Positions 22,997-55,081 of a stretch of DNA of 64,000 nt are shown in pieces. Under the pieces are notes generated by a model. It was not told the origin of the DNA. It saw nothing but the letters and a program-made list of their open reading frames with translations, and did no database searches. The stretch spans positions 1,193 to 65,192 of the forward strand of contig CAYMWM010000003.1 in assembly GCA_964394185.1 (NCBI GenBank), written 5' to 3'. Position numbers and translations under genes: made by a program. This stretch comes from an uncultured Smithella sp. (lineage in GTDB: Bacteria; Desulfobacterota; Syntrophia; Syntrophales; Smithellaceae). Positions within the stretch are counted from its first letter, which is position 1. Each line of letters starts with the position of its first letter.

Positions 22997-23776
22997 ATGC
23001 CCAAGATTGTTAATCATGATGAATACCGGCAGGAACTGCTGGAGAAGTCTTTTCATTTATTTACCCGCAAGGGCTATACTAATATAAACATGAAAGAAAT
23101 TGCCGCTGAAATCGGTGTATCCACCGGTACTCTCTATCATTATTTCCCTTCCAAAGAAAATATGCTTGCCGAGATGATTTCCTGGATAGGCCAGGAAAAC
23201 ACCGAAGAATATATCAAACGAACAAGTTCGGTCGAAAGCATCAGCGACCGTTTTGATATGATTGTTGATTACTGGAAAGAAAAGGGCAAGCTGTATGAAT
23301 GCATCCTGCTTCTGGCCTTCGACATGTACCGCAATACGGATATTGAACACTGGAAACCGCTCTATGACGCTTTTGCTGAACGCTACACGGCCGGTATGTC
23401 GGAGAGGCTCAATATCTCCCGCCAGTTTGCCCGTTCCATATTCATTTATTTTCTCGGACTTTCCTTTCACGCCATTGCTACCGGCAGCGACACCGATGAA
23501 TACAACAGGCAAGTGGATTTCCTCGATGTCATATTCAGACCGTTGATTGTTGATGCCGGACAGGACATGGGTAAAGCGACTCGGAAATTCAGGGAAGTTT
23601 ACAGAACATTTCTCGCCAATTTGCCGGTTGTTAAAAAGGAAGCCATTGAAAAGACAATGGAAAATTCACAGACGGAAAAAACCGGAAAAAAGCTTAAAAA
23701 ATCCAAAACAAAAATAAATAAATCAGCATTGAACAAGTCGAATAAAAAACAATATTCGGTAAAGGAGGCACCATGA
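22997..23776 (+). CDS. TetR/AcrR-family transcriptional regulator with Lys-rich C-terminal tail
   Basis: N-terminal HTH LFTRKGYTNINMKEIAAEIGVSTGTLYHYFPSKE. The ATG at 22997 follows AGGAAAGG; the track ORF starts at GTG 22988. Confidence 0.85.
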   Translation: MPKIVNHDEYRQELLEKSFHLFTRKGYTNINMKEIAAEIGVSTGTLYHYFPSKENMLAEMISWIGQENTEEYIKRTSSVESISDRFDMIVDYWKEKGKLYECILLLAFDMYRNTDIEHWKPLYDAFAERYTAGMSERLNISRQFARSIFIYFLGLSFHAIATGSDTDEYNRQVDFLDVIFRPLIVDAGQDMGKATRKFREVYRTFLANLPVVKKEAIEKTMENSQTEKTGKKLKKSKTKINKSALNKSNKKQYSVKEAP

Positions 23777-25014
23777 ATAAAAGCCTGGATGAATTATTTG
23801 TTTACCCGAAGGAACTGGTTGATGAAGAATCGAAGCGGATTATTCATCTGGTCGGGCAATGGGCGAATAAGGAAATTATTTCCAAACGTCAGGAGTACCG
23901 GGAAAATTACGAAAAGCTCTTTATCGAAAAGAGAAAATCCCTTAATCTTGCTATTGGTTTACAGAGGCTGACTTTACCGGAGGAACATGGAGGCTTCGGC
24001 TGGAACAGTCCCGCTAATGCTCCCGGTATCGTTTCCATCCTTGCCGAAATCGGACGGGCGGATGCCGCTATAGGCGTTGTCTCCGCCGTCAAATATACTA
24101 TATTTGCTGCAATCAGCATGGCACCCCATCTGGATAAAAAGCTGTGCGATGCGCTGGCACCGATTTATTGCGCCGAAGAGTTAAAAACGCCTTCCCTCAT
24201 CCTGCCAGGTTCGGGTAATATCGGGCAGGATACATCCCTGTTTTTAGGCAGGTCGATTCTCGCCACGGCTGAACCGGAAGGAGAAGGTTATGCGGTCAAT
24301 GGAAAGAATCTCAGGCCTTTAAACAGCGGCGCCGTGGCCGACCTCTTTTGCGTGGTATGCGCGGACAAACTGGGCAGGCCGTGCATCGCTTTGGTTCCCG
24401 GCGATGATCCAAATATCATCCGTGGTAAAACGCTTCTGGAAACCGGTTTAAACGCCAGCGCCAATGCCGGTGTAAGTTTCAATAATGTCAGAATCCCCCA
24501 ACCCCATGTTATTGCCCGCGAAGGCGTCGTCGAAGAAATCTACACCTGGCTGAATTTATTGCTCGGCGGTGTAAGTGTCGGCGCCGGAATGAACTTTTTT
24601 GAAATAGTGAGCGACTGGTCGGAAACCAGAACGATCAAGGGCGGATATATGATGAAGGAAAATCCTCTCTGCGCTTCTGTCCTGGCCGATGTGGCCGACG
24701 AGATTTTTACCGCAAGACTGCTCCTTTACAATCTGGCGCACATTATGTCCAAGCCGGATGACTGGGGATACAGCGGCTCGCAGCGGGTCTATACCTTTGC
24801 GCAGATCATTGGTTCGCAGGTGCAGCAGAAAGTCATCAGGGCAATCAACAGAGGAATGGAACTGATGGGTTCAGCCGGCTATTCCAAAGAGTGGCACGTG
24901 GAAAAACACTGGCGTGACGTCAAAACCATCCAGTCGTACTTATGCGGAGTCGGCGCTGAGGCGCCGGTGAAAATGGATACCGCGCGGTTTTTCTTTGACT
25001 GCAAAGAGATTTAA
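23773..25014 (+). CDS. Acyl-CoA dehydrogenase-family protein lacking the canonical C-terminal YEG(T/S) catalytic-Glu motif
   Basis: ACAD-length protein ending ..EKHWRDVKTIQSYLCGVGAEAPVKMDTARFFF. Overlaps the TetR stop (ATGA). Confidence 0.8.
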   Translation: MNKSLDELFVYPKELVDEESKRIIHLVGQWANKEIISKRQEYRENYEKLFIEKRKSLNLAIGLQRLTLPEEHGGFGWNSPANAPGIVSILAEIGRADAAIGVVSAVKYTIFAAISMAPHLDKKLCDALAPIYCAEELKTPSLILPGSGNIGQDTSLFLGRSILATAEPEGEGYAVNGKNLRPLNSGAVADLFCVVCADKLGRPCIALVPGDDPNIIRGKTLLETGLNASANAGVSFNNVRIPQPHVIAREGVVEEIYTWLNLLLGGVSVGAGMNFFEIVSDWSETRTIKGGYMMKENPLCASVLADVADEIFTARLLLYNLAHIMSKPDDWGYSGSQRVYTFAQIIGSQVQQKVIRAINRGMELMGSAGYSKEWHVEKHWRDVKTIQSYLCGVGAEAPVKMDTARFFFDCKEI

Positions 25015-25030
25015 TAAGGAGGCCAACACG

Positions 25031-26311
25031 ATGAAAAACTTCGATGAATTCTCAAAACAGGAAGAATACATATCCCCAATGGATAAACACCTCCGTAGTG
25101 CGCTAAGAAACTGGGCAGACAAAGAAGTCATACCCTTCAGGCGTCAATACGATGAAGACTGGAAAGATCATCACATCATCGAACCGGCCTTTGACAAACT
25201 TATGGGAAACAAAGGTCTCGGAATTCAAAAAGCTTTATTCCCGCCGGAGCTAGGCGGTTGGGGAATCGGTCATTCCGATTACGCCTTCACGGTTGCCTGT
25301 GCGCTGGGAGAAGAGGTGGGAAGGGCGGATACCGCCATGGCTGTAGCTTTTATGGTTACTTACTGGCCTCTCACTACAATCCTTGTCGAGCCTCACGTCA
25401 ACTGGCGTCTGGCCAAAGAGTTCGCGCCGATGTTTTGCAATGCCGAAAAGGCGGTTTTCGCAGCCAATGCCATGACGGAGCCTCAGGGCGGAGCAGATAT
25501 CGAGAATATGGAGATATTAGGCGGCAAGACCATCCGTACCACTGCGCGCCTCGATGGTGACGAATGGGTACTCAACGGCCACAAACTCTGGCCGACCAAT
25601 ACCGGCGGTGTGGCCAAGCTCTTCTGCGTGCCCTGTACAACCAAACCAGGTTCAAACGATCCCAATGATTTTGCATTGATATTTGTACCCGCCGACGCCA
25701 AAGGAGTAACCCAGGGAGGAGCTTACGAAAAGGCCGGTATGGCCGCAGACAAGAACGGCGACATCTGGTTTGAAGATGTCAGGGTGCCCAGCTGGTACCG
25801 TGCTCATGGTCCGGGTATCGACGCGCAGGTCTTTCGCGAAATCATTCCATGGGGACTGGTGGGCAGCATGGGATTCCTGTGTGGCGCCATGTTCAATCTT
25901 TATGAAATTCTCTATGAATTTGTTTCGACAAGAACCTACAAAAACAGACCGTTAAAGGAGGACGATTGCATTGCCGGTATTATCGGCAGGATTGCCGGCG
26001 ACATTGATATCTGCCGGATTCTGTCCTATGAAGCTGCAAAAATGTGCGACAGGCGCAACAAACCTTACGGATATCCGATATATTCCGATGAGGTAGTTTG
26101 CAAGATGCGCAACCTCAAGGATTTCGTTTCCGATAGAGCGGTGGATATTTTCGGCAAGACCATGGACGTATTAGGTGCGTATGGAGCCGATCGGGATTAT
26201 GATATCGAAAAGCACTGGCGCGATATCAAAATCATTCAGTTATGGATGGGCGGCAAGCAACTCTGTCAGATGGAAGCAGCCCGGTATTTCTTCAATTGCA
26301 AGACATTATAG
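25031..26311 (+). CDS. Acyl-CoA dehydrogenase-family protein, paralogue of 23773-25014, also without the YEG(T/S) motif
   Basis: TEPQGGADI (ACAD signature-like) and C-terminal EKHWRDIKIIQLWMGGKQLCQMEAARYFF. The ATG at 25031 is preceded by AAGGAGG; the track ORF starts upstream at 24995. Confidence 0.8.
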   Translation: MKNFDEFSKQEEYISPMDKHLRSALRNWADKEVIPFRRQYDEDWKDHHIIEPAFDKLMGNKGLGIQKALFPPELGGWGIGHSDYAFTVACALGEEVGRADTAMAVAFMVTYWPLTTILVEPHVNWRLAKEFAPMFCNAEKAVFAANAMTEPQGGADIENMEILGGKTIRTTARLDGDEWVLNGHKLWPTNTGGVAKLFCVPCTTKPGSNDPNDFALIFVPADAKGVTQGGAYEKAGMAADKNGDIWFEDVRVPSWYRAHGPGIDAQVFREIIPWGLVGSMGFLCGAMFNLYEILYEFVSTRTYKNRPLKEDDCIAGIIGRIAGDIDICRILSYEAAKMCDRRNKPYGYPIYSDEVVCKMRNLKDFVSDRAVDIFGKTMDVLGAYGADRDYDIEKHWRDIKIIQLWMGGKQLCQMEAARYFFNCKTL

Positions 26312-26322
26312 GAGAGCAAATC

Positions 26323-26760
26323 ATGGAAGAAGCCAACAAGGGAGTCATTGACTTAACCGACAGAGTGCTTAAAGAACTTCTCAAAAAGCCCGGTTTTAAA
26401 GAAGGCGTCAGAACAGTGCTGCAGAATATTGATCCGGATTCCAGCCGCAGACTGGTCAGAACGATGATGTGGCAGGATCCGGAGTTTTTTCTCGGATTGC
26501 TCGGCGCAGTTCCCTCTATCGTTAATTCCCTTGCGCAGGGAACGGATGAAATGCTTACTCAGCTCAACGAAAAATTTTCTCCGCAGCTGCTTCATGATTT
26601 TATGAAGTCGATTTTTTTGTCGCTGGATAAAGATACACTGGAGAACATTGTCCGCAATGGAAAAATTCTGGCAACAAAATTATGGATTGTAGCGGAAGAA
26701 ACATACAATGAACAAAACGCAGCCAATAGCATTACGGGGGGAAAAGAACATGGAAAATAA
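26323..26760 (+). CDS. Hypothetical helical protein, member 1 of a local three-gene paralogue family
   Basis: The ATG at 26323 follows GGAGAG. Shares the pattern ..NIDPD..LV..MWQ(D/E)PE..L..LG(A/S)(V/I)P..VNS.. ..LNEKFS..LL.D.. with the next ORF. Confidence 0.6.
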   Translation: MEEANKGVIDLTDRVLKELLKKPGFKEGVRTVLQNIDPDSSRRLVRTMMWQDPEFFLGLLGAVPSIVNSLAQGTDEMLTQLNEKFSPQLLHDFMKSIFLSLDKDTLENIVRNGKILATKLWIVAEETYNEQNAANSITGGKEHGK

Positions 26761-27391
26761 CGCCGCAATGCCCGCCGCAGGCGGAGTAATGAAAGAAGTG
26801 TTGAGTACACCCTTTGTCAAAGATTTGATTCGCCTCAATCTGCAGAACATCAAACCGGAGAAAACGCATCCGCTCGTCAATACGCTTATCTGGCAGGAAC
26901 CGGAAGTTATTTTATCTGTTTTGGGTTCGATTCCTCCCGTTGTCAATTCCTGTACCGGCGCTCTGGCAGAAGCGGGAAAGCAACTCAATGAGAAATTTTC
27001 ATCGGAACTGCTCCGGGATTATGTCGGCAGCATTCTGAAGGATATCGATACGGAAGCATTGAAAGGTCTGGTTGAAGCTTATGTCGCTCTGGGGAAAAAT
27101 CTCTGGGACGCTTCCCCCGAATTCAGGGAGATGGTCGGCAAAGCATTAACTCAGGATGCACCGCCGCTCGTCGGCAAAGGAATCAGTTCGGCCTGTCGCT
27201 TTGTCAACGACGTCAGCAGGGAAGACCCGCAGGTGGTAAGCCGGTTTGTTTCGGATGTCGTGAAAAATATCGACGGCGAAGAATTTAAGGATGCGACCCA
27301 TACAATTGCCAACGCGTTTTTGGATCAGAAGCTGCATTTAATTTCCTGGACATGGCAGTTACTGCGCAAAAGAATGAAAAGAAGAAAGTAG
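26750..27391 (+). CDS. Hypothetical helical protein, member 2 of the local paralogue family
   Basis: Aligns with member 1 (LQNIKPEKTHPLVNTLIWQEPEVILSVLGSIPPVVNS..LNEKFSSELLRDY). The start at 26750 overlaps the member 1 stop by 11 nt. Confidence 0.6.
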   Translation: MENNAAMPAAGGVMKEVLSTPFVKDLIRLNLQNIKPEKTHPLVNTLIWQEPEVILSVLGSIPPVVNSCTGALAEAGKQLNEKFSSELLRDYVGSILKDIDTEALKGLVEAYVALGKNLWDASPEFREMVGKALTQDAPPLVGKGISSACRFVNDVSREDPQVVSRFVSDVVKNIDGEEFKDATHTIANAFLDQKLHLISWTWQLLRKRMKRRK

Positions 27392-27418
27392 TTATTAACA
27401 TGAATGGAGGCACGTTCC

Positions 27419-28651
27419 ATGAATGATGTTGAAAAACAGATTCAAACCGATCCCGCCGCCAAAGTAATAGGCGAAATTATCTGGAGATTTGCCAAAACAC
27501 CTCCGGCAAGAAATCTGGTTATGTCCGTTGTTCGTGCTGCGCTGAAGGACTGGTCGGGTGACAGCAGATTTAGGGAACACATATCAGCAAACCTGGAAAA
27601 GACCATTGATAATGTCCTTTCTCAGAGAGGAAATAACGAAAACAAAATTGCCGGAGATGCAAGTTACGCGGAAAGCCTTCGTCCAATTGTACGTGATTTG
27701 GTCGAAAACATTGATTTTGGCGAAATAAAGGAAGCAGCAGACTTTCACAAAGAAAACATCGGGGCCGCTGTCATGATGATCAATGAGGAGCTCTGGCGTT
27801 ATCCGGCCAAGGTCATTTGTTTGTTGTCACTGCTTCCTGCCGCCGCGAACATGACTGTGTCGGCGGCCAAGGAAACCCTGACGCCAATGAACAGGCTGGC
27901 GCCGGATCTGCTGGCCGATGTGGTTTTTTCTCTGGTTGATGATATTGACGGCAAAAATATCGGTGAACTGATTAATGAACTAAGTGAACTTGTTCGTAAA
28001 ATTCATACCGGCAGCACGCTTTTGGGCGAACCGGGCAAACCTCAGCTGCCCAACTCTTTAAATCGTCTGACAGGTGAAGTCATCAGCACGATTGATATCA
28101 ATCTGTTGCTGAAATCCAGAAAGCTTTTGGCGGAAATCAAGGAAGTCTCGCTGAAATCCTTCATTGACCAGCTGGAACTAAGCCCCGAACTTTCCAGTGA
28201 ATTTTTCCAGGATCATTTTCTTTCTATAGTGGCGTTTATCAGAAACTGGAGCCGCAAAGCCGACGCCTTTGAGCGTCTGTTTTCCGATGAAGACATTGCT
28301 CGTGAATTTGCTAAAGGTATGGGCGAGATTGACGCCCAGGAAGTGGCTAGTACGATCAGCATGTTGTGCGGCATTGTGAATCGTGTGCGTGCTGTTACGC
28401 CGGGTGTTATACGCAATACCCTGTCGCAGACGATAAACGCGATGGACGCGGACGAAGCCGGTGAGACGGTGCGCTGGCTTACCGAGGATATCGTGGAATC
28501 TCTTAAACCGGTGGCTTCCGAGGTACTGCCCCCTCTTATCAGAGGATTGGCGGACCTTTTAAGACCGGATCCCAACAATGGTTCCAAAGAAATTCAGGAA
28601 GCGCTTGCCTATTTTAATAACGCAATTGACGGGAAGGAGGCACCTGTATGA
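27419..28651 (+). CDS. Hypothetical helical repeat protein, member 3 (about three copies of the module)
   Basis: Contains the related segment NEELWRYPAKVICLLSLLPAAANM..MNRLAPDLLADVVFSLVDDIDGKNI and recurrent x-(I/M)-D-x3-(hydrophobic) motifs. The ATG at 27419 follows GGAGG. Confidence 0.6.
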   Translation: MNDVEKQIQTDPAAKVIGEIIWRFAKTPPARNLVMSVVRAALKDWSGDSRFREHISANLEKTIDNVLSQRGNNENKIAGDASYAESLRPIVRDLVENIDFGEIKEAADFHKENIGAAVMMINEELWRYPAKVICLLSLLPAAANMTVSAAKETLTPMNRLAPDLLADVVFSLVDDIDGKNIGELINELSELVRKIHTGSTLLGEPGKPQLPNSLNRLTGEVISTIDINLLLKSRKLLAEIKEVSLKSFIDQLELSPELSSEFFQDHFLSIVAFIRNWSRKADAFERLFSDEDIAREFAKGMGEIDAQEVASTISMLCGIVNRVRAVTPGVIRNTLSQTINAMDADEAGETVRWLTEDIVESLKPVASEVLPPLIRGLADLLRPDPNNGSKEIQEALAYFNNAIDGKEAPV

Positions 28652-29796
28652 TGAAGGAATTTATTGAGGCCTCCACGGCTCTCAACAACAAGCATGTAAA
28701 CCAGTGGAAGAAAAAAGGAAAAAAAGTTGTCGGTTATACCTGTTCCTATGTGCCCGATGAAATCTTTCACGCGGCGGGTATTCTGCCATTTAGAATCCGC
28801 GGATTCGGCGCTACCGAAAATACAATCGGGGACACATACTTTGGCCCCTTCATTTGCAGTCTTCCCAAGTGCATGCTGCAACTGGCCGGTGAAGGGAAAT
28901 TTAATTTTCTGGATGGCGCGATCATCACACCCGGTTGCGATTCAATGAGACGGCTCGATGAGTGCTGGCGCAAAGCCGGTAGTGATATGCCGGGTGTTAT
29001 ACCCCCATTCTTTTTTCATTACGGCGTTCCTCATAAGTATGAGGACTATACCATCAAGTGGTTTACGGATGAAACCAAGCGTCTGATTGCGGCGGTTCAA
29101 GAACATTTTAAAGTTGAAATAACCGAGGCTGATCTCAAGGAGTCCATCAGTGTTTATAATTACAGCAGAAAACTCCTTGAAAGATTTGACGCACTGCGCA
29201 CGATGGATAATCCGCCGTTCGGCGGCGGAGAAGCGCTAGCGGTCATTCTTGCCGGCACGACCATGCCCCGGGAGAATTACAACACCCTTTTGGGGAAATT
29301 CCTTGCCGATGCTCAAAAAGCTCCCGGAATAAAGGATCGTGTACGATTGATGCTTGTCGGCAGCGCCAATGATGACATCGGATTGGTTCGGGTGATGGAA
29401 GGATCAAAGGCGCTTGTGGTTGCCGATAATCTTTGTTTCGGGTCCCGTTTTTACACCGACCGGGTTGGCGAAGACGGCGATCCGGTTTTGGAACTGTCCA
29501 AACGCTATCTGGGGCACAATGATTGTCCCCGCATGTATGGCGATTATCAGAGAAGATTGAACATACTGGAACAGAAGGTCAAAAAAGCAAAAATTGACGG
29601 TATCGTTCTGCAGAACATCCGCTTCTGCGATCTTCACGGCGCGGAAAACGGCATCTTTGAACGGGACCTGGAAGCCAAAGGAATACCCTGCATGCGTCTC
29701 GAACGGGAATATGGTCCTTTGGTGGAGACGGGAAGAATGAAAATGCGCGTCGATGCTTTTATTGAGCGAATACAGCAGAGGAGGAAAGCAGCATGA
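28648..29796 (+). CDS. HGD-D family subunit, BcrC/BzdN/HgdB-like (small subunit) of an ATP-dependent reductase/dehydratase
   Basis: GYTCSYVPDEIFHAAGILPFRI (characteristic N-terminal C-x-Y-x-P-x-E motif) and conserved Cys in ITPGCDSMRRL and IRFCDLHG. 382 aa. Confidence 0.8.
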   Translation: MMKEFIEASTALNNKHVNQWKKKGKKVVGYTCSYVPDEIFHAAGILPFRIRGFGATENTIGDTYFGPFICSLPKCMLQLAGEGKFNFLDGAIITPGCDSMRRLDECWRKAGSDMPGVIPPFFFHYGVPHKYEDYTIKWFTDETKRLIAAVQEHFKVEITEADLKESISVYNYSRKLLERFDALRTMDNPPFGGGEALAVILAGTTMPRENYNTLLGKFLADAQKAPGIKDRVRLMLVGSANDDIGLVRVMEGSKALVVADNLCFGSRFYTDRVGEDGDPVLELSKRYLGHNDCPRMYGDYQRRLNILEQKVKKAKIDGIVLQNIRFCDLHGAENGIFERDLEAKGIPCMRLEREYGPLVETGRMKMRVDAFIERIQQRRKAA

Positions 29797-32772: not shown

Positions 32773-32778
32773 GGGAAA

Positions 32779-34276: not shown

Positions 34277-34294
34277 TCAAAGAGAGAATGCGTC

Positions 34295-35128: not shown

Positions 35129-35162
35129 TAGGACAGCAGTAGAACAAAGAAGGGGGATCAAT

Positions 35163-36299: not shown

Positions 36300-36316
36300 T
36301 TTGATAAGGAGAATGC

Positions 36317-37831: not shown

Positions 37832-37847
37832 AGATAGAGGAGTTACA

Positions 37848-39158: not shown

Positions 39159-39181
39159 ATAAATACATGAAGGAGATTGAC

Positions 39182-39973: not shown

Positions 39974-40070
39974 ATATAGTAGTTGATAATTTTGGTGCTT
40001 TAAAAATTAAATTGGAAAAGAGGCCAGTCTTATTCGGAAGCAGGAACAACGTATTTATGGTGAGTCTTAC

Positions 40071-41591: not shown

Positions 41592-41622
41592 GGTTGTTTT
41601 TATTTCATGAGGCATAGGAGAC

Positions 41623-42939
41623 ATGCGTATGCATATGGCCACTAAAAAGACAGCTTATCATAAGCTGGGGGAAAAGATAGACAACCTGCATGTAAAATCA
41701 CCCTGGAATGAAACATGGCATCATATCCTTAAGGAGTTATACACCATTGAGGAGGCTGATGTGGTGGTCGGGATGCCCTATACTCTTTCAACACTGGAAA
41801 GAATATCGCAGATAACCGGAATTGAGGGCACCAGACTTCAGAACATTCTGGAGAGCTTGTGCAGAAAAGGGCTTGTTATGGATGTATGGAATGTGGATCA
41901 CGGCCGGTACTATTATCTGCCCTGGCCTATAGCCATAGGGATTTTCGAATTTACCATGATGAGGACCGATAGAGATCTCAACAAGAAGAAAATAGCGGAA
42001 CTCTTTCACGAATACTTCGGTTCCGTGCACGCTGCTAATTTTTCAAACGATGAAAAAATTTCAGCGCTACGCGTCATTCCCGTTGAAGAATCTATATCCA
42101 ACGGCAATCATACGGTGTTTTTCAATTACGAAAAAGCCACATCGATCATCGAAAGTTCGGATAAGTATGCCATCGGCCTTTGCTCCTGCCGGAACGAAAA
42201 ACTGCATGCTGGAGCCGGGACTTGCGATGCGCCTATGGATTCCTGCAGCCTCTTGGGGATTGGTGCGGATTACGGGATCAGAAATAAACTCGCCAGGCAG
42301 GTCACGAAATCTGAAATGCTGGATAACTTAGCCCGGTCAAAAGAATATGGTCTGGTATTCTGTGCCGTCAACACTCAAAAGAATCCGGTGGCCATCTGCC
42401 ACTGCTGCAAGTGCTGCTGCAACTTTTTAGGCGGATTGACCAAATACGGATATCAGAATTGCGTCGTTACATCCAATTTCATTTGCCGGATCGATGTCGA
42501 CAAGTGCAAAGGATGCGGTCGATGCGTTAACGCATGTCCGGTCAATGCTTTGAGTATGGTGTCGGCAAATGATCCTCGGAACATGAAAAAGAAAATATGC
42601 CTGCTCAATACGAAAATATGCGTGGGCTGCGGTGTTTGTGTAAACAAATGTGTCGGCAAGGCCATTGAGATGATACCGCGGGAGAACAGGGTTATTCATC
42701 CGGAGTCTCTTTTCGAAGTGATTATGATGGCGGCACTTGAACGCGGCACCCTGCAGAACCAACTGTTTGATAATCCATTGAGCATAACGCAGCATTACAT
42801 GAGAACCTTTGTCGGGGCGTTTCTGAAGCTTGAATCGATCAAACAGGTTTTTATGAGCAATCTTTTCCGATCCATATTCTTATCATCGGCAAGGGGAATT
42901 GCCAGAATGCAGGGCAAGCGTTGGATGCTGGATCTATAA
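41623..42939 (+). CDS. Cys-rich Fe-S protein (copy B), paralogue of 37848-39158
   Basis: YAIGLCSCRNEKLHAG, ICHCCKCCCNFL, CKGCGRCVNACP and CVGCGVCVNKC. The start could be 41623, 41629 or 41635 (MRMHM). Confidence 0.75.
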   Translation: MRMHMATKKTAYHKLGEKIDNLHVKSPWNETWHHILKELYTIEEADVVVGMPYTLSTLERISQITGIEGTRLQNILESLCRKGLVMDVWNVDHGRYYYLPWPIAIGIFEFTMMRTDRDLNKKKIAELFHEYFGSVHAANFSNDEKISALRVIPVEESISNGNHTVFFNYEKATSIIESSDKYAIGLCSCRNEKLHAGAGTCDAPMDSCSLLGIGADYGIRNKLARQVTKSEMLDNLARSKEYGLVFCAVNTQKNPVAICHCCKCCCNFLGGLTKYGYQNCVVTSNFICRIDVDKCKGCGRCVNACPVNALSMVSANDPRNMKKKICLLNTKICVGCGVCVNKCVGKAIEMIPRENRVIHPESLFEVIMMAALERGTLQNQLFDNPLSITQHYMRTFVGAFLKLESIKQVFMSNLFRSIFLSSARGIARMQGKRWMLDL

Positions 42940-43195: not shown

Positions 43196-43606
43196 ATGAT
43201 GAAAAAAATCAGTACAGATTTTTGGGAGAAAATGTTTTTTATCGGCGCTTTGTGGAATATCGGCATCGGCCTTAGCGGTCTCTTATTCTATGATTTCAGC
43301 ATGAAGATGCTTTTCGGAGAGCAGGCGGCAACGGCCAATTTTCTGACCCTGTTTTTTTTCCGGTTCTTTATGATTGCGGTGATTATCTTTGGTGTTGGTT
43401 ATTATATCGTCTCCCGTGATCTTAACACCAATCGGGCCGTTGTGTGGCTGGGGCTTGCGGCAAAACTCATCATCTTTTTTACCTTCGTTTATTACTATAT
43501 TTTGGGACAAGCTACCTGGTTTTCCGTGTTTGGCTGTTCAGGCGACTTCGCCTTTTCCATTTTGTTTATAATCTTTCTTTACCAGACAAAAGAAGGCGTT
43601 CAATAA
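43196..43606 (+). CDS. Small integral membrane protein (about 4 TM helices), unknown function
   Basis: 136-aa hydrophobic ORF after a 256-nt intergenic gap. I recognised no motif. Confidence 0.5.
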   Translation: MMKKISTDFWEKMFFIGALWNIGIGLSGLLFYDFSMKMLFGEQAATANFLTLFFFRFFMIAVIIFGVGYYIVSRDLNTNRAVVWLGLAAKLIIFFTFVYYYILGQATWFSVFGCSGDFAFSILFIIFLYQTKEGVQ

Positions 43607-43631
43607 TTTTTAATAGGATAAGAGGCGAACA

Positions 43632-44381
43632 ATGGCAAAAAAACCGATAGATAATCTCTCCCGGCTGTATACGTATAAAGAGGGTATGGAATGGAATCCT
43701 GTGGAAAAGGTCATCATGGAGCGGCGCAGTATCCGGAATTTCAAAAAACAGCCGGTTCCCGACAATATGATCAGAAGAATTCTTGAGGCCGGGAGATTCG
43801 CACCTACGGCGGGTAACGCCCAGCCCTGGAAATTCGTTGTCATCAAGGATCAGGCGCTGATTGCGGAAATGGAAAAAGAAACAATCAAATTCAGTAAATT
43901 GCTCATGTGGTTTGTTGATTATAATCGCAATGCCTTCCGGAGCGTATTTCTTGCTCCTTATACAAAGTTTATGACGCGGTTGATGCCCAATAAGCTTCAT
44001 CCCATCCCTTTCAACCTGCTCCAGCAGATAGCGGCGGAAAAAACACCGGTTTACCACAATGCTCCGGTGATGATCCTGCTGATGATAGATAAAAGGGGCG
44101 TCGGCAATCCTGTTTTGGATACGGGAATCTGCGGACAGAACATGGTTCTGGCTGCCCACAGTTTGGGCTTGGGAACCTGCTGGGTCGGCATGATAACCGT
44201 ATTGATGATGAATCCCCTTTGGCGGAAAAAATTGGGAGTAGCCTCTCCTTATGAACTTACCGATTGTCTTGTTTTAGGCTGGCCCAAAGGCGATTATGAC
44301 GGCGAGGTGGAAAGAGAGGTCCAATTGGTTGAGTGGATTGATGAAAACGGAGTAAAAAGAATAGAGAGTCAGGGAGTTTGA
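43632..44381 (+). CDS. Nitroreductase-family flavoprotein
   Basis: RRSIRNFKKQPVP....ILEAGRFAPTAGNAQPWKFVVI is the classic nitroreductase N-terminal signature. Confidence 0.8.
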   Translation: MAKKPIDNLSRLYTYKEGMEWNPVEKVIMERRSIRNFKKQPVPDNMIRRILEAGRFAPTAGNAQPWKFVVIKDQALIAEMEKETIKFSKLLMWFVDYNRNAFRSVFLAPYTKFMTRLMPNKLHPIPFNLLQQIAAEKTPVYHNAPVMILLMIDKRGVGNPVLDTGICGQNMVLAAHSLGLGTCWVGMITVLMMNPLWRKKLGVASPYELTDCLVLGWPKGDYDGEVEREVQLVEWIDENGVKRIESQGV

Positions 44382-44737
44382 TTGATATGTTAAATTTGGC
44401 ACTGGGTAAAAAAAATAAGATACCGAATTATTTCAAAGAGAATCAAATGACTTACGGCATTGTAATGTTCGATCCGAAGGCGTGCACGGGTTGCGGGATT
44501 TGCGTCTCCCTTTGTCCGGCGCGGGGCTTGATTCTTGCCAGAAGATCCGAAGATTCCAAAAAGAAAATTCCGTTGATGATACAGCCGGCACTGGGAATAT
44601 CGCTGTGCATGGCCTGCGGAGATTGCCGGGCTGCCTGTCCCGAAAATGCCATCAGCATAAAGCAGGGATTCAATACCAGGTTCTTTTACCGAAAGTTGTC
44701 TCAAAAACCGGACATGACCGGGCCTAAGAAATATTAG
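44378..44737 (+). CDS. 2x[4Fe-4S] ferredoxin
   Basis: CTGCGICVSLCP and CMACGDCRAACP. 119 aa. ATGA-type overlap with the nitroreductase gene. Confidence 0.8.
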   Translation: MIDMLNLALGKKNKIPNYFKENQMTYGIVMFDPKACTGCGICVSLCPARGLILARRSEDSKKKIPLMIQPALGISLCMACGDCRAACPENAISIKQGFNTRFFYRKLSQKPDMTGPKKY

Positions 44738-44763
44738 TTTTGCAACAAGGAGGAAGTAAATCA

Positions 44764-46155
44764 TTGAAGCCGACCCCTAAACCTTTCGAATATCTCAAGT
44801 GGAGCGCTGATTTCCTGAATCTGGGCTATTACGTCAGTGTTTTCCCCTCTCTGGCTTACTGGTCGATGAAGTTAACCAGGCCTCTCTATGTTCAGGGGGA
44901 GAATTTTTTTAACCGCAAGGTGCGCTGGTCGTTTCTCACCATGGGTGCCGGCGTTGCTCCACCTGAAGACATTCGTGCCTACCGTTATGGAGTAAGGGCT
45001 TTTGTTGATAATTTTAAAAATGCCATGAAGGCGAATGAGGATGGCAAGCCGGTTGTGTGGGTCGAATGGATACTGTCCTCCGAAATCGTCGGGGCCTTCG
45101 ATGCTGTAGCTTTCAACCCGGAAACGCTCAGCGTGTTCGGAAATATGTCCGGTAAGGACATACCGTCTATGTTGATAGAAGAAGCGGAAAGCAGAGGGTT
45201 TGCTTCCGAATATTGTTCTGCCATCAAAGTCACGGCGGGAGCCTACATGCTGGGACAAAGCCCGCAGCCTGCGGCAATAGTTGCAGGCTCTCATCCCTGT
45301 GATACGAATGTTTCCGCATATCAGAGTATTGCCCATCTTACGGGAGCACCGGTCTATTATTTTGATGCCCCCTACTGGAGGGACGAGGATTCCTATAATT
45401 ACTACGAAACAAGAATGTGGGATCTTGTCGCCTTTTTGGAAAAAAATCTTCACCAGAAAATCGACTGGGACAGGCTCAAGCAGATTGTGGATAATGAAAA
45501 CAAATTTAATTTTTATCTGCACGAAATCTGTGAGATGATGCGGGCCGTTCCTGCCCCGGCCAGCATGATTACGCTTGTTTTTGCCTGGATCGTGCGGGAA
45601 ATAGGTATCGGTGATTCCAACGGAACCGAGATGGCCAGACTCATGTATGAAAACACCAAAGACCGTTACAAAAACGGCAGGGGTGTTGTCAAAAAGGAAA
45701 ACATTCGCGTCTTATGGTGGAATCCGCCCATCGCTTTTTTCAGCTATGTTTTTAAGTGGATGGAAGATGAGTTTGGTGCCGTTGTTGTCAAAGATTTTAT
45801 TGGCGATGTTCAGGTGCCCCAGATTGATACCTCCACGGAAAAAACCATGATTCGCGGATTGGCGGAGAACCATCTCTTTCTGGCAATGGCCAGACAATGC
45901 CGTGGACCGGTGGAATTCATTATCGAGGAGTTGGAGCAGGCCATCGAAGAATATTCGCCAGACTGCCTGATTTTTGCCGGACACGCGGGTTGCAAACATG
46001 GCTGGGGCGTTATCGGCATTATCAAGGATGTACTGAAAAAGCGGGGCCTGCCGTCTTTATTTATGAACATGGACATCATGGATCAGAGGCACGCCACAGA
46101 AGATGATATCAAAGGCTGGATAAGGGAATTTTTCAGGAGCAATGGATTCGCATGA
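44764..46155 (+). CDS. HGD-D family large (HgdA/BcrB-like) subunit, third set
   Basis: EYCSAIKVTAG, SHPCDTNVSAY and GHAGCKHGWG Cys segments. The TTG at 44764 follows AAGGAGGA; the track uses the TTG at 44740. Confidence 0.75.
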   Translation: MKPTPKPFEYLKWSADFLNLGYYVSVFPSLAYWSMKLTRPLYVQGENFFNRKVRWSFLTMGAGVAPPEDIRAYRYGVRAFVDNFKNAMKANEDGKPVVWVEWILSSEIVGAFDAVAFNPETLSVFGNMSGKDIPSMLIEEAESRGFASEYCSAIKVTAGAYMLGQSPQPAAIVAGSHPCDTNVSAYQSIAHLTGAPVYYFDAPYWRDEDSYNYYETRMWDLVAFLEKNLHQKIDWDRLKQIVDNENKFNFYLHEICEMMRAVPAPASMITLVFAWIVREIGIGDSNGTEMARLMYENTKDRYKNGRGVVKKENIRVLWWNPPIAFFSYVFKWMEDEFGAVVVKDFIGDVQVPQIDTSTEKTMIRGLAENHLFLAMARQCRGPVEFIIEELEQAIEEYSPDCLIFAGHAGCKHGWGVIGIIKDVLKKRGLPSLFMNMDIMDQRHATEDDIKGWIREFFRSNGFA

Positions 46156-47339
46156 AAACAATACTTGATAAAACAAAAGAAATCTCCTCTTCGACTTCCA
46201 ACCATTATCTGGACGAAGCCAAAAAACAGGGAAAGGGCATTATCGGATATTTTTGCTCTTATATGCCTGAAGAAATCATTCATGCCGCCGGATTTATTCC
46301 GTACCGCATGCGCGCGGTGAAAAGCAAGGGAACAACGAAAGCTGACGCTTATTATTCTTCAATCAATTGTACCTTTGTCAAACATTGCTTCAATAAGGCA
46401 TTAAACGGCGAATTTGATTTTCTTGACGGCGTGGTTTTTCTCAACGGCTGCGATCATTCCCGGCGTATGTATGATAACTGGCGTTATGCCGGAATCAGAC
46501 ATTCATTCCTGCATATGTTTTTTGTGCCTCATGTTATCAGCGATAGTGCTTATGAACATTTCACTCTTGAGTGCAAAAAGCTCAAGTCATCTCTGGAAAA
46601 TCATTTTAAGGTGTCCATTAGCGACGATACACTCAGGAAATCAATCGGTCTTTATAACGAGAAGCGGCGGCTTTTGACGGAGATTTATGCCTTGAGAAAG
46701 AAAAAAGATGTTCCCGCCAAAGCCAGCGAGATTTTGGGCGTTTTACTGGCAATCACGGCGGTACCTCTCGAACTGGCCTTAGAAATACTGACAGAAGTAA
46801 AAGATTTTCTTAAAGGGCGTGTCGTTTCCAAACCCGGGGAACCACGTCTTTTTCTCTCAGGAGGTTGTATCGAGGAGATAGAGCATCTGGAACTCATCGA
46901 AGATTGCGGCGCTTCCATTGTGGCCGATAACATCTGCCTGGGCACGCGTCATTTTCTGGGTGAAGTGGAGCTGGAAGGAGATCCCTGGCAGGCTGTCGCT
47001 CATCGATACTTAAATCATCTTTCCTGCCCGCGAATGATGGGCGAATTTAACCGGAGATTTGATTATTTAATGAATATTAAAGATGAATACAGCATTGATG
47101 GCATCATCATTGAAAAATTGAAGTTTTGTGATTTATGGGGAGGGGAAATATATCTCTATCGCGCAGAATCAAAAAACAAAAATATTCCTTTGCTGTTCAT
47201 GGAGAGGGAAGTATATGGAGGCGGCACCGGACAGATCAAAACAAGGGTACAGGCTTTTCTGGAAAAGATTAAGAATAAGCAAACGACGGATGAGAGTTTA
47301 GTTCAGGCGGCCGGAGCTGATTATAGACCAAAATTATGA
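46152..47339 (+). CDS. HGD-D family small (HgdB/BcrC-like) subunit, third set
   Basis: GYFCSYMPEEIIHAAGFIPYRM N-terminal motif, LNGCDHSRRM and LKFCDLWG. 395 aa. Confidence 0.8.
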   Translation: MKTILDKTKEISSSTSNHYLDEAKKQGKGIIGYFCSYMPEEIIHAAGFIPYRMRAVKSKGTTKADAYYSSINCTFVKHCFNKALNGEFDFLDGVVFLNGCDHSRRMYDNWRYAGIRHSFLHMFFVPHVISDSAYEHFTLECKKLKSSLENHFKVSISDDTLRKSIGLYNEKRRLLTEIYALRKKKDVPAKASEILGVLLAITAVPLELALEILTEVKDFLKGRVVSKPGEPRLFLSGGCIEEIEHLELIEDCGASIVADNICLGTRHFLGEVELEGDPWQAVAHRYLNHLSCPRMMGEFNRRFDYLMNIKDEYSIDGIIIEKLKFCDLWGGEIYLYRAESKNKNIPLLFMEREVYGGGTGQIKTRVQAFLEKIKNKQTTDESLVQAAGADYRPKL

Positions 47340-47359
47340 AGTAAATAAGGAAGGAAATT

Positions 47360-48724
47360 ATGAACAAAGCAGGAAGTGATTACGAATACATAATCGTCGG
47401 TACGGGACCCGGAGGCGGTCCTGTGGCCAGAGAGTTAGCCAGAGCGGGCAAAAAAGTGCTCATGGTGGAAAAAGGAGATTACCACAAAAAGTTTCTTGGT
47501 CTTCCCTTTGGTATCCGATTATTGGAACGTTATATGCTTTTTGCAAGGTCCTTGGAAGGCGTAATTATCGAGCGCGGCATTACGGTCGGCGGTTCTTCCA
47601 TGGTTTACCAGTCCAACGTCATGGAACCTCCCAAAAAGTTGATAGACAATATGGGAATAGATTTCAGCCCGGAGGCAAAGGAACTCAAAAGTGAAATCGG
47701 TGTCGAGGTCCTGCCGGAGCGCTTTTACCGGAACAACAAGGGGCTGTCCCGGATGCTGGAAGCGGCCGAAAAGATGGGTATACCCTTCCGGGAGCAGGAA
47801 AAATTCGTTCATGCCGATAAGTGCAAACTGGGCTGCGACTGGTGCATGCTGGGTTGTCCGGAAAATGCCCGCTGGACAACAAGAGAGCATGTGGAAGAGG
47901 CAAAGTCATACGGCGCCGGACTCATTTATAATTCGCCCGTCCACAATGTCCTTTTTAATGCTGGTAAAACAAAGGCAACCGGGGTGCAGTTGAGTAACGG
48001 TACCGTCATCAACGGTGATAACGTCATTCTCGCCGCCGGAGGAATCGGTTCTCCGGCCATTCTCTTAAGATCGGGAATAAAAAAATTGGGAACACAGGAC
48101 GTAGGGACGAGATTCTTCATGGATCCCATGAACATCATGCTGGGTTACAGTAAAGATCCTGACGGTGGATTGTGGGGGATACAGACCTTCACGCACGCCA
48201 TTGAATCTATGGCTCAGAGCGAAGGCTTTATGATCGGGAACTGTTCCGCCTTCGGAACATGGACGGTTTTATCTTTCTTCCGCTTGAAAACAGCAAAAGA
48301 AAATCTGCCCAAATTCCCTATCATGAGAAGGGGGATGGGATTATTTCTGAAACTCTCCGACGAAGCGCGCGGTCAGATTTATCCAAATGAAAAAACCAGC
48401 AAGCCGTTCACGGAAGTCGATGAGAAGAAGCTGAAGAAAGGAACGGATATTATGCGGGAGATCATTATAAAATCGGGTGGTGATCCCAAAACGATTTCCA
48501 TTCTCAAGTGGGCAGGCGGTCATCCCGGCGGGACGCTTGCTATGGGGCAGGCGGTCAACAGGGATTTCTCAACCGAGATTGAGAATCTCTATGTCTGCGA
48601 CGGCAGCACCATGCCCGTGTCGCCCGGCGCTCCGCCTTCGCTTTCCATTTGTTCCATGTCAAAGCTTCTGGGAAAGATGCTTTTGGGCAAGGTGAAGGCT
48701 GAAGAACGGTTCGTAAATAAATAA
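47360..48724 (+). CDS. GMC-family FAD-dependent oxidoreductase
   Basis: YIIVGTGPGGGPVARELA..KVLMVEKG (FAD ADP-binding motif) and C-terminal LYVCDGSTMPVSPGAPPSLSI, typical of the GMC C-terminal domain. Confidence 0.8.
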   Translation: MNKAGSDYEYIIVGTGPGGGPVARELARAGKKVLMVEKGDYHKKFLGLPFGIRLLERYMLFARSLEGVIIERGITVGGSSMVYQSNVMEPPKKLIDNMGIDFSPEAKELKSEIGVEVLPERFYRNNKGLSRMLEAAEKMGIPFREQEKFVHADKCKLGCDWCMLGCPENARWTTREHVEEAKSYGAGLIYNSPVHNVLFNAGKTKATGVQLSNGTVINGDNVILAAGGIGSPAILLRSGIKKLGTQDVGTRFFMDPMNIMLGYSKDPDGGLWGIQTFTHAIESMAQSEGFMIGNCSAFGTWTVLSFFRLKTAKENLPKFPIMRRGMGLFLKLSDEARGQIYPNEKTSKPFTEVDEKKLKKGTDIMREIIIKSGGDPKTISILKWAGGHPGGTLAMGQAVNRDFSTEIENLYVCDGSTMPVSPGAPPSLSICSMSKLLGKMLLGKVKAEERFVNK

Positions 48725-50249: not shown

Positions 50250-50292
50250 ATACGGTGAATAGATAAGACCAAATAATGTGGGGTTCAATTTT

Positions 50293-51699: not shown

Positions 51700-51756
51700 T
51701 TATTTTCAATTATTGGGGAGGATAGAGCCATCGAAAGAAGCAGTTTACAACGAGGT

Positions 51757-55069: not shown

Positions 55070-55081
55070 GAGGAAACAAGA

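Follow-up and report, generated by a model that had tools for sequence, protein, structure and literature searches.

A conserved gene island of an uncultured Smithella predicted to encode a new subfamily of Bzd-type ATP-dependent iron-sulfur reductases

Results

A cluster of 25 genes in an uncultured Smithella sp. appears to be a TetR-controlled catabolic island encoding ATP-dependent Fe-S reductases of Bzd type that form a new subfamily and would act on a CoA thioester, a reading which, judged from gene content and conserved residues, we regard as somewhat probable. The cluster is widely conserved and has never been studied, and the three or four ATP-powered Fe-S reductases that it seems to encode merit biochemical follow-up. 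It occupies positions 22988-48724 (+ strand) of the window, the 64,000-nucleotide stretch of contig CAYMWM010000003.1 that was analysed. Open reading frame listing and Pfam/NCBIfam scans confirmed that its genes share one orientation and are tightly packed, with the HGD-D, ATPase, ferredoxin, ACAD, nitroreductase and GMC content described in the original prediction. The translational coupling proposed there is borne out by 4-nt ATGA/TTGA overlaps at six junctions (23773, 28648, 29793, 31987, 44378 and 46152), together with overlaps of 1 nt at 31199 and 8 nt at 33506; the widest intergenic gaps are 97, 256 and 195 nt. The same scans recovered the expected seven HGD-D genes (PF06050) as three small/large pairs plus one orphan large subunit (small: 28648, 35163, 46152; large: 29793, 36317, 40071, 44740) and three PF01869 BcrAD/HgdC-type ATPase genes (31199, 31987, 39167). 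The fourth large-subunit gene, that of pair 3, had been placed at 44764; the gene is real, but its start is ambiguous, either TTG at 44740 or TTG at 44764. The genes are as follows.

22988-23776, +: TetR-family regulator (PF00440, E 9e-16; probable start ATG 22997)
23773-26311, +: ACAD-like gene pair, 23773-25014 and 24995/25031-26311 (Pfam)
26242-28651, +: three helical proteins of ~145, 214 and 410 aa (likely starts 26323, 26750, 27419)
28648-31199, +: HGD-D pair 1, small (382 aa) and large (468 aa) subunits (Pfam, Cys alignment, conservation)
31199-32772, +: two adjacent BcrAD/HgdC-type ATPases, 263 and 261 aa (PF01869; TIGR00241 above cut-off)
32779-33513, +: ACS middle-domain (A2) protein, 244 aa (PF03598)
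33506-34276, +: CooC/AcsF-type P-loop ATPase with a CXC motif (Cys113, Cys115)
34295-35128, +: flavodoxin-ferredoxin fusion, EFR1 family (NF038196, 100 bits against a cut-off of 75; Pfam)
35163-37831, +: HGD-D pair 2, small (378 aa) and large (504 aa) subunits (Pfam/NCBIfam, Cys alignment)
37848-39158, +: 436-aa Fe-S protein with 23 Cys (ferredoxin the only recognised domain)
39167-39973, +: third BcrAD/HgdC-type ATPase, 268 aa (PF01869, NCBIfam, bridging Cys alignment)
40071-42939, +: duplicate module, extra large subunit (506 aa) and second Fe-S protein (438 aa)
43196-44737, +: small four-helix membrane protein, nitroreductase-family flavoprotein (gene at 43632) and 2x[4Fe-4S] ferredoxin (gene at 44378)
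44740-47339, +: HGD-D pair 3, large (471 aa) then small (395 aa) subunit
47360-48724, +: short GMC-family FAD oxidoreductase (Pfam)
49381-50148, -: GntR/FCD regulator, divergent from the downstream block (Pfam)
50278-57220, +: beta-oxidation-like block of SCP-x-type thiolase, AMP-forming acyl-CoA ligase, two ACADs (509 and 373 aa) and SDR (Pfam, NCBIfam)

Although every gene listed in the original prediction was confirmed, the ACS-like (CdhC/ACS) and CooC-like genes had been overlooked. Likewise, the genes up to the earlier boundary at 48724 are real, but the functional island runs past the divergent GntR gene to ~57220, since the thiolase/ligase/ACAD/SDR set downstream also flanks the ACS-like/CooC/HGD-D module in other genomes (loci L070 and L091). 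Upstream lie several B12-radical SAM genes, and glycosyltransferase genes are also found in the neighbourhood; in other genomes the radical-SAM block does not accompany the module.

A genome scan anchored on the large subunit of pair 2 (504 aa, 36317) showed that the core gene order recurs at 75 genome loci; it also recurs at 80 metagenome loci, and this conservation far exceeds chance. It is found in more than 100 metagenomic contigs of Smithellaceae, Desulfomonilia, Desulfobacterales and Spirochaetota; cultured carriers are all but absent. In other lineages too, the ACAD pair, ligase, thiolase, SDR, nitroreductase, ferredoxin and GMC genes are found beside the module (L005, L019, L070, L090, L091). 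The upstream ACAD pair keeps synteny with the core at L005, L019 and L027, and the membrane protein/nitroreductase/ferredoxin trio stands beside the module in L014, L026, L070 and L090. A TetR gene, which in the island overlaps the following gene by ATGA, is found ahead of the module in Spirochaetota and Smithellaceae loci as well, and a GMC gene flanks it in Spirochaetota and other loci. By eye, a 650-aa gene resembling aldehyde:ferredoxin oxidoreductase neighbours the module in 11 Desulfobacterales loci, and in three Spirochaetota loci a minimal module stands near glpA-like and glpB-like genes. No characterised counterpart of the island gene order was found in the literature and no protein reached an NCBIfam equivalog cut-off for Bcr, Bzd, Had or DCCP, in agreement with the earlier statement that the order fits no characterised cluster. 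Synteny in Desulfobacterota, suggested as a check in the original prediction, does exist, but because it is confined almost wholly to uncultured organisms, it does not speak against the novelty of the cluster.

The proposal of HGD-D/BCR-superfamily enzymes served by ASKHA ATPases and dedicated ferredoxins is supported, and the cluster ligands expected for ATP-driven electron injection are all conserved. The BzdO [4Fe-4S] ligands Cys95, Cys128 and Cys380 have counterparts in all four large subunits (Cys134/163/415 in pair 1, Cys186/214/447 in pair 2, Cys159/187/418 in pair 3), and these are invariant in 47-65 homologs. Six Cys in each of the three small subunits, BzdN-like in pair 1, align with the [8Fe-9S] double-cubane ligands of BzdN and DCCP, while HadC lacks two of the six in the alignment (cluster roles as given in PMC11971306). 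The small subunit of pair 2 has exactly six Cys, every one invariant, and its large partner carries an N-terminal extension of ~150 aa. The large subunit at 40071 is 76% identical to 36317, the two genes sharing 93% identity over the last 150 nt against 59-83% across the remainder, and second large subunits in tandem are also seen at several other loci. Pair 3 orthologs in L090 and L022 carry two ATPases of their own.

Since six-Cys small and three-Cys large subunits are conserved, the HGD-D enzymes would be built like Bzd-type class I aryl-CoA reductases. The original prediction had given dehydratase, reductase and DCCP equal weight; the superfamily was right, but with six Cys in the small subunits the reductase/double-cubane type is the more likely, and in build the enzymes seem closer to Bzd-type reductases than to dehydratases. 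Function transfer is nevertheless weak, because HGD-D scores fall far below curated cut-offs (at best 201 bits, for double_cubane, against 350) and the large subunits reach only ~35-59 bits against solved relatives, compared with 101-204 bits for the small subunits. Moreover, BzdO His131, the catalytic acid/base, is replaced by Gly in the 36317/40071 family and by Asn in 29793 and 44740; a chemistry other than Birch-type ring reduction is therefore possible.

These last observations bear on a reading of the enzymes as true dearomatising aryl-CoA reductases, with benzoyl-CoA or substituted or polycyclic aryl-CoA esters as substrates, which is how such genes are auto-annotated in metagenomes and which we consider unlikely. 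Among solved structures, BzdNO (Aromatoleum sp. CIB; PDB 8S02) is closest to the small subunits and the 504-aa large subunit, and the stretch 28648-32772 shares with bzdNOPQ its domains and N-O-P-Q gene order, that is, an HGD-D heterodimer with two ASKHA ATPases, a six-Cys [8Fe-9S] subunit, an open-site three-Cys [4Fe-4S] subunit and a dedicated ferredoxin gene nearby. Homologs are named bcrB and bcrC in Syntrophaceae MAGs, the 650-aa oxidoreductase-like gene could point the same way, and the ATP-dependent tetrahydronaphthoyl-CoA reductase shows that class I-type enzymes can serve strict anaerobes. That reductase, however, is reported to be 70-78% identical to class I BCRs, unlike the island proteins, which score 26-151 bits with the bzdN, bzdO, bcrB and bcrC models (cut-offs 421-487). 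A Syntrophaceae MAG carrying such "bcr" genes lacked the remainder of the benzoyl-CoA pathway, and the island likewise contains no lower-pathway, dienoyl-CoA hydratase or ring-hydrolase genes. Its CoA ligase scores 170 bits against a benzoate-CoA ligase cut-off of 375 but 405 bits with a generic acyl-CoA ligase model; models for long-chain and other acyl-CoA ligases also outscore the benzoate one. With His131 replaced as well, the aromatic substrate suggested originally, polycyclic or substituted, finds no support. The island further differs from bzdNOPQ in its conserved ACS-like, CooC-like, 410-aa helical and 436-aa Fe-S proteins, and in having strict anaerobes as hosts. These hosts are low-energy syntrophs and degraders of fatty acids or hydrocarbons.

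Radical 2-hydroxyacyl-CoA (or similar) dehydratases, in which ATP serves only catalytically, to inject one recycling electron, and the enoyl-CoA products go on to reduction or oxidation by ACADs in the manner of the had, fld and lcd operons, are also rather unlikely. The HadBC/HadI, HgdAB/HgdC, FldBC/FldI and LcdAB/LcdC systems belong to the same superfamily, and clostridial dehydratase operons (had, fld) contain ACAD genes, as does the island. Pair 2 has their alpha/beta-plus-single-activator arrangement, the residue at the His131 position is small in the 36317 family (compare Ala in HadB), the small-subunit profile has HadC as its runner-up in the PDB (194 bits, the top match reaching 204), and catalytic use of ATP would suit energy-limited syntrophs. 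Against this, all three small subunits keep the six-Cys set that HadC has lost, pair 1 has two ATPase genes in the manner of reductases, HadB/HadC equivalog scores are 29-150 bits for cut-offs of 700-750, and domain scans of the island revealed no CoA-transferase or 2-hydroxyacid dehydrogenase gene.

Highly improbable, in our view, is that there is no thioester pathway at all and that the genes form a DCCP-like small-molecule reductase set or a PlsA/Ger-like lipid-modifying system, the latter perhaps indicated by the radical-SAM and glycosyltransferase neighbours. The double_cubane model leads the NCBIfam matches of six of the seven HGD-D proteins, its scores (36-201 bits) lying under its cut-off, and DCCP/DCCP-R of Carboxydothermus hydrogenoformans (PDB 6ENO, 7YYL) has in common with the island the six-Cys [8Fe-9S] signature and an ASKHA ATPase as partner. 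DCCP is, however, a one-gene homodimer with the double cubane as active site, whereas the island has heterodimers in which the double-cubane subunit is paired with a distinct three-Cys, putatively catalytic subunit. Plasmalogen synthase (PlsA/PlsR) and glycerol ester reductase (Ger) are likewise built from HGD-D and BcrAD_BadFG domains for difficult reductions or eliminations in anaerobes, and the B12-radical SAM genes and the glp-like neighbours in Spirochaetota would fit lipid chemistry. Yet PlsA and Ger are single fused DUF2229 proteins acting on membrane lipids, while the island encodes separate subunits in a context of CoA metabolism; it is with ACADs, CoA ligase and thiolase that the module is syntenic, and not with the radical-SAM block.

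Discussion

The reading as Bzd-type reductases acting on a CoA thioester can be laid out as a pathway. From context, the AMP-forming CoA ligase would activate a carboxylic acid, perhaps derived from an alcohol or aldehyde oxidised by the GMC oxidoreductase, or made in some relatives by the putative AOR-type enzyme recognised by eye. Low-potential electrons would come from ferredoxins, the flavodoxin-ferredoxin fusion and the Cys-rich Fe-S proteins. The Fe-S paralogs at 37848 and 41623 (45% identical) have 23 Cys apiece, at least 17 of them invariant across the family, and the 436-aa member shows the motifs CxC...C...C, CxCCxCCC and two copies of CxxCxxCxxxC. Family knowledge and conserved Cys suggest ASKHA ATPase dimers, each bridged by a [4Fe-4S] cluster, as the next electron acceptors. 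ATPases 31199 and 31987, which are 52% identical and both contain the bridging Cys (125, 164), probably form a BzdPQ-like heterodimer, and 39167, whose gene follows that of the 504-aa large subunit in 61 loci, would be a homodimer and the predicted single-gene activator of pair 2. ATP hydrolysis would push electrons into the small-subunit double cubane and on to the open-site [4Fe-4S] cluster of the large subunit, where radical reduction of the thioester may occur; the ligands for these presumed cofactors are conserved. Four distinct large subunits could reflect several substrate specificities or successive steps, and two of them probably share one small subunit.

Products may be handled in a beta-oxidation-like manner by ACAD heteromers, SDR and thiolase. 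The upstream ACAD-like proteins are 29% identical to each other; the first shows no Pfam middle-domain match and the second is complete, and together they are probably a heteromeric ACAD. Their best NCBIfam matches, cyclohexane-1-carbonyl-CoA and glutaryl-CoA dehydrogenases, are both far below cut-off. The conserved ACAD pairs, CoA ligase and thiolase fit the CoA-thioester chemistry that had been proposed. Several points speak against the reductase reading: three or four reductases consuming ATP stoichiometrically would sit uneasily with the narrow energy margins on which syntrophs live, facultative anaerobes are the typical owners of class I BCRs (PMC11971306, PMC10936416), the layout of pair 2 is that of dehydratases, and an enoyl-CoA hydratase was not found in the island.

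The ACS-middle-domain protein and the CooC-type ATPase would be fixed accessories of the four-subunit enzyme, and their association with it is seen across genomes: the CooC-like gene lies directly downstream of the ACS-like gene in 59 of 61 loci, with an ATPase upstream of the latter in 39 of 41 and an HGD-D gene in 28 of 30. The 244-aa protein aligns to ACS residues 334-484, and ACS structures are the only matches (E 1e-10) of its AlphaFold model (pLDDT 78), which shares the middle-domain fold of ACS/CdhC. Its C-terminal tail (C213-x2-C216-x5-C222), kept in 57 of 58 locus homologs and 124 of 127 family representatives, sits where the first A-cluster ligands, Cys506/509/518, would fall, but the protein lacks the N-terminal domain and almost the entire A-cluster domain, including the Cys-Gly-Cys nickel site. 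The ATPase has the deviant Walker A and CXC metal motif of the nickel-insertion ATPases CooC/AcsF; its top PDB match is CooC1 (3kje), with the CXC motifs in register, and Cys113/Cys115 are invariant in 57 of 57 homologs. Unlike in known ACS/CooC systems, no CODH or corrinoid protein genes lie near the pair, which is always embedded in HGD-D/ATPase operons. Maturation, metal delivery or a CoA-binding Fe-S subunit is the most likely role.

The three helical proteins, with zero Pfam or NCBIfam matches, are part of the conserved core. The first two (g04 and g05) share 39% identity; the 410-aa protein is predicted to be all-alpha (model pLDDT 71, no Foldseek match), and in 37 loci its gene immediately precedes the first HGD-D pair.

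Gene organization of the predicted reductase island

ORF mapping combined with Pfam and NCBIfam scans showed an unbroken run of genes on the + strand between 22988 and 48724, in which three pairs of HGD-D genes (BzdN/BzdO-type Fe-S subunits, small and large) alternate with activators and electron carriers. The genes, with positions in the window, are as follows.

22988, +: TetR regulator, first gene of the run
after the TetR gene, +: two ACAD-like genes
after the ACAD-like genes, +: three genes without a family match
28648 and 29793, +: HGD-D pair 1, small then large subunit
31199 and 31987, +: two BcrAD-type ATPases
32779-33513, +: CdhC-like (ACS-like) gene
33506-34276, +: CooC/MinD-type ATPase
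34295, +: flavodoxin-ferredoxin fusion, EFR1 family
35163 and 36317, +: HGD-D pair 2, small then large subunit
37848, +: 436-aa protein with 23 Cys
39167, +: third ATPase
40071, +: extra HGD-D large subunit
41623, +: second Cys-rich protein
between the 41623 and 44740 genes, +: four-helix membrane protein, nitroreductase and 2x[4Fe-4S] ferredoxin
44740 and 46152, +: HGD-D pair 3, large then small subunit
47360, +: GMC oxidoreductase, last gene of the run
past a divergent GntR gene, to 57220, +: SCP-x-type thiolase, AMP-forming CoA ligase, two further ACADs and SDR

The co-oriented island from TetR to GMC oxidoreductase put forward in the original prediction was borne out by this map, and the gene overlaps listed there proved real when the junctions were checked. 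Its gene inventory also stood as described, but the CdhC-like/CooC-like pair had been overlooked.

Scans for promoters, terminators and operators returned one long hairpin, with the remainder not above chance. A hairpin with a 19-bp stem at 56251-56292, between the last ACAD and SDR genes, is the sole strong terminator-like structure of the island. A structure search with the 410-aa helical protein gave no match, family searches with the Cys-rich 436-aa protein recognised nothing beyond a ferredoxin domain, and the extensions of the large subunits contain no convincing transmembrane segment. The G+C content is 35-45% upstream (1-24000) and 46-52% across the reductase island (24000-42000), a step that may reflect either a different origin or the codon and amino-acid bias of Fe-S enzymes.

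Cluster ligands and class of the predicted reductase subunits

In the class I enzyme BzdNO, BzdN holds an [8Fe-9S] double cubane by six Cys, and BzdO carries a [4Fe-4S]-OH2 cluster on Cys95, Cys128 and Cys380, where Glu65 and His131 form an acid/base pair beside the Fe-bound water; dehydratases have lost the double cubane, and HadB has Ala at the His131 position (PMC11971306). Profile alignment placed the six Cys common to the three window small subunits on the six Cys of BzdN and DCCP, including the equivalents of Cys38 and Cys264, which are missing from HadC. The 35163 family has no Cys besides these six, each of which is invariant in 64-65 of 65 homologs. Alignment of the 504-aa family profile with BzdO (8S02_A) brought Cys186, Cys214 and Cys447 of the large subunit 36317 onto Cys95, Cys128 and Cys380; equivalent Cys motifs occur in each of the three remaining large subunits, and the ATPases retain both [4Fe-4S]-bridging Cys. 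Because all three sets of ligands are kept, the island enzymes appear to have a Bzd-type reductase architecture, with a double-cubane electron store and an open-site [4Fe-4S] cluster. Pair 1 shares even the bzdNOPQ gene order, since 28648, 29793, 31199 and 31987 are contiguous and overlapping, and encode the small HGD-D subunit, the large HGD-D subunit and two ASKHA ATPases.

The active-site residues are less similar to those of BzdO. His131 is replaced by an invariant Gly217 (or the neighbouring Ala216) in the 36317 family and, by Cys+3 offset, by Asn in 29793 and 44740, while the alignment of 36317 to BzdO ends short of Glu65. Moreover, 35163, 36317 and 39167 have the alpha/beta plus single-activator layout of 2-hydroxyacyl-CoA dehydratases, which is kept in 61 loci. 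A dehydratase-like mode of pair 2, with catalytic use of ATP, is kept alive because a stoichiometric ATP cost would be heavy for syntrophs and is a real objection to a reductase. On the other side, the ligands of the double cubane that dehydratases have lost are retained, and scans of the island found no CoA-transferase domain, a mark of dehydratase operons.

The large subunits 36317 (504 aa) and 40071 (506 aa) are 76% identical with near-identical 3' ends, and tandem second large subunits are common in other genomes, which suggests that both work as alternative catalytic subunits with 35163 as their common small subunit. The last ~150 nt of these paralogous genes (37666-37831 and 41420-41591) are 93% identical, compared with 59-83% elsewhere in the genes, a difference that suggests a recent gene conversion event at their 3' ends.

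Comparison with characterised families

None of the proteins reached an NCBIfam equivalog cut-off for Bcr, Bzd, Had or DCCP. Top scores were 151 bits for bzdN (cut-off 454), 59 for bzdO (449), 36 for bcrB (487), 145 for bcrC (421) and 206 for bzdQ (380); the HadB and HadC equivalogs gave 29-150 bits (cut-offs 750 and 700), the DCCP model NF040772 gave 36-201 bits (cut-off 350), and the large subunits scored only ~35-59 bits against BzdO, MbdO, DCCP and HadB. DCCP is also a homodimer of one gene, whereas the window genes form unlike pairs, even though the six-Cys motif is common to both. Tetrahydronaphthoyl-CoA reductase has a reported identity of 70-78% to class I BCRs, and for this reason the window proteins do not correspond to that enzyme. 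With scores far under the cut-offs and only distant similarity to solved structures, orthology to canonical BCR, tetrahydronaphthoyl-CoA reductase, Had or DCCP was rejected. The PlsA/Ger lipid enzymes were rejected on architecture, since they combine two BcrAD domains, DUF2229 and HGD-D segments in one polypeptide (PMC13159169), whereas the window genes are separate and Pfam scans gave no DUF2229 match. We classify the island as machinery of the BCR/HAD/DCCP superfamily in a new subunit composition.

The original prediction could map the gene order to no characterised cluster, and searches of open-access full texts found none with a matching order. They turned up neither the island nor an association of HGD-D, ACS-like and CooC proteins, and nothing relevant on a link to Smithella/Syntrophaceae or strain TL4; as only open-access papers were covered, absence there is not proof. 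Papers on limonene and phenanthrene were set aside because their enzymes are unrelated to the island.

An ACS-like protein and a CooC-type ATPase accompany the predicted reductase

The 244-aa product of 32779-33513 aligns by HMM with residues 334-484 of Moorella ACS. Its AlphaFold model (pLDDT 78) gave 23 Foldseek matches at E <= 0.001, every one of them an ACS chain, the best with an E of 1e-10 and ~175-200 residues aligned, so that the protein is predicted to have the fold of the ACS middle (A2) domain. A C-terminal C213-x2-C216-x5-C222 motif is found in 57 of 58 locus homologs and in 124 of 127 full-length representatives of the ACS-like family. Judging from alignment offsets and ACS residue numbering, these Cys presumably occupy the place of the first three A-cluster ligands of ACS (Cys506, Cys509 and Cys518). 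Complete ACS, however, is a protein of ~700 aa with four Cys for the [4Fe-4S] cluster and a Cys-Gly-Cys nickel site, unlike the 244-aa window protein with its three conserved Cys. At E <= 1e-30 the family falls into 196 clusters (50% identity), and the best-scoring 150 of the 196 representatives are mostly ~240 aa long.

The ATPase encoded at 33506-34276 is closest to CooC1 (3kje), with both the deviant Walker A motif GKGGVGKT and the CXC metal motif aligned, and its Cys113 and Cys115 are invariant (57/57 homologs). Window family scans found no nickel transporter or CODH near the pair, and the window holds no riboswitch or other RNA element pointing to a ligand or metal.

Metagenomes scanned independently, with the ACS-like protein as anchor, gave 80 loci with identity down to 37%. 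The CooC-like gene lies directly 3' of the ACS-like gene in 59 of 61 loci, and upstream of it an ATPase is found in 39 of 41 and an HGD-D gene in 28 of 30; a second HGD-D enzyme follows downstream in 14 of 29. Since these neighbours recur across metagenome loci, the ACS-like/CooC pair is a fixed accessory of the four-subunit enzyme, its candidate roles being maturation, metal delivery or that of an Fe-S subunit that binds CoA. We also advance, as an improbable proposal, that the ACS-derived protein and the CooC-type ATPase might be integral to a new kind of ATP-dependent reductase, in which CooC would install a nickel or heterometallic Fe-S site, or the ACS fragment would handle CoA as an Fe-S subunit and deliver the thioester. 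If true, this would connect ACS/CODH-type metallocluster biology with the BCR/HAD/DCCP superfamily for the first time, and the enzyme could be the key one in an anaerobic pathway widespread in syntrophic Smithellaceae, Desulfomonilia, Desulfobacterales and Spirochaetota.

Distribution and conserved gene order

Proteins identical to those of the window occur in one 65.9-kb NCBI contig and in Logan contigs of SRR8925758 and SRR8925742, and the closest relatives, at 84-86% identity, come from Smithella MAGs. With the 504-aa large subunit as anchor, a genome scan gave 75 loci, of which 74 lie in MAGs and one in 'Deltaproteobacteria bacterium TL4' (locus L070); they represent Smithella/Smithellaceae, Syntrophaceae, Desulfomonilia, several Desulfobacterales families, Spirochaetota/Leptospirales and one Bacillota. 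When the window proteins were mapped on them, a conserved order emerged, with the 410-aa helical protein, small and large subunit, two ATPases, ACS-like and CooC-like protein, followed by (flavodoxin-ferredoxin), small subunit, 504-aa large subunit, (second large subunit), (Cys-rich Fe-S protein) and ATPase. In three Smithellaceae loci (L005, L019, L027) this block is followed by an ACAD pair and two short helical proteins, and in loci L022 and L090 the orthologs of pair 3 have two ATPases of their own. In strain TL4 the ACS-like/CooC/pair-2/ATPase module occurs with a CoA ligase, nitroreductase, ferredoxin and two amine-oxidase-type flavoproteins, as well as an SDR, two ACADs and a thiolase, and in L091 a downstream thiolase and ligase are linked to the ACS-like/CooC module too.

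The two TL4 flavoproteins (3146-6962 of L070) are of the amine-oxidase/phytoene-desaturase type, 615-627 aa long, and lie between the ferredoxin and ACS-like genes; one has a Tat-like signal and a rubredoxin-like insert. In three Spirochaetota loci (L048-L050), neighbours of the module resemble glpA and glpB (anaerobic glycerol-3-phosphate dehydrogenase), by eye only.

ATP-driven Fe-S reductases carry out the most difficult reductions known in anaerobic metabolism, and to our knowledge only a handful (Bcr/Bzd/Mbd, Had/Hgd/Fld/Lcd and DCCP) have been studied, nearly all from cultured organisms. The cluster is a large, coherent and uncharacterised branch of these enzymes, in which an ACS-derived protein and a CooC-type chaperone come together with the double-cubane architecture. 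It occurs in >100 contigs, whose sources are digesters, peat, groundwater, sediments and hydrocarbon sites, and nearly all of these lack a cultured carrier. The island is a concrete target for heterologous expression and clearly of interest to enzymologists who study anaerobic radical and Fe-S systems, its mechanism being one proposed from sequence.

Pathway context and possible substrates

CoA chemistry is supported by the presence of two ACAD pairs, a CoA ligase, an SCP-x-type thiolase and an SDR. In each ACAD pair one member has no middle-domain match, and the CoA ligase scored 405 bits against a generic ATP-dependent acyl-CoA ligase and 170 against the benzoate-CoA ligase family (cut-off 375). 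The thiolase (50278-51699, 473 aa) exceeds its family models by ~85 residues, with a Lys-rich insertion at ~130-225, and its DUF35 partner gene is absent.

GMC oxidoreductases recur beside the module in other loci, and in 11 Desulfobacterales loci (the L032-L047, L068, L073 set) a 650-aa aldehyde:ferredoxin oxidoreductase-like gene, identified by eye only, follows the third ATPase; together these give a hint of an alcohol or aldehyde precursor.

The aromatic CoA-thioester that the original prediction named as a possibility may be the substrate but has no support. The window genes that were scanned include no crotonase-family member, nor are genes of the lower benzoyl-CoA pathway (dienoyl-CoA hydratase, hydroxyacyl-CoA dehydrogenase, ring hydrolase) co-located there, and a Syntrophaceae MAG with auto-annotated 'bcr' genes lacks the rest of the pathway. 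These absences, the loss of His131 and the lifestyle of the hosts, which are syntrophs and fatty-acid/hydrocarbon degraders, leave it without support. As the cluster shows, an automatic annotation as "benzoyl-CoA reductase" in Syntrophales MAGs is not to be taken as evidence for aromatic degradation. Other, speculative ideas for the substrate were propionate dismutation by Smithella, 2-hydroxy or isoprenoid fatty acids, steroids and alicyclic acids.

Other genes of the window

A separate co-oriented block lies upstream (2270-16234), with four B12-binding radical SAM genes, of which 2270, 10335 and 11903 are 63-78% identical and 6284 is more distant, two more radical SAM genes, a TPR protein, a GT2 glycosyltransferase, an amine-oxidase-type flavoprotein and a 469-aa membrane protein without a Pfam match. 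Its function may lie in the modification of lipids or glycoconjugates; a part for it in the reductase system was rejected because it is not syntenic with the module in other genomes. Between 16322 and 22570 are sugar-nucleotide genes, coding for an NAD-dependent epimerase/dehydratase, a fused nucleotidyltransferase-HAD-kinase, a GHMP kinase and a GT2 protein, and a metallo-beta-lactamase-fold protein is encoded directly upstream of the TetR gene. Past the island, a 704-aa DUF5018-domain protein (59290-61404) adjoins a Na+/H+ exchanger; DUF5018 is mostly known from surface proteins of Bacteroidota.
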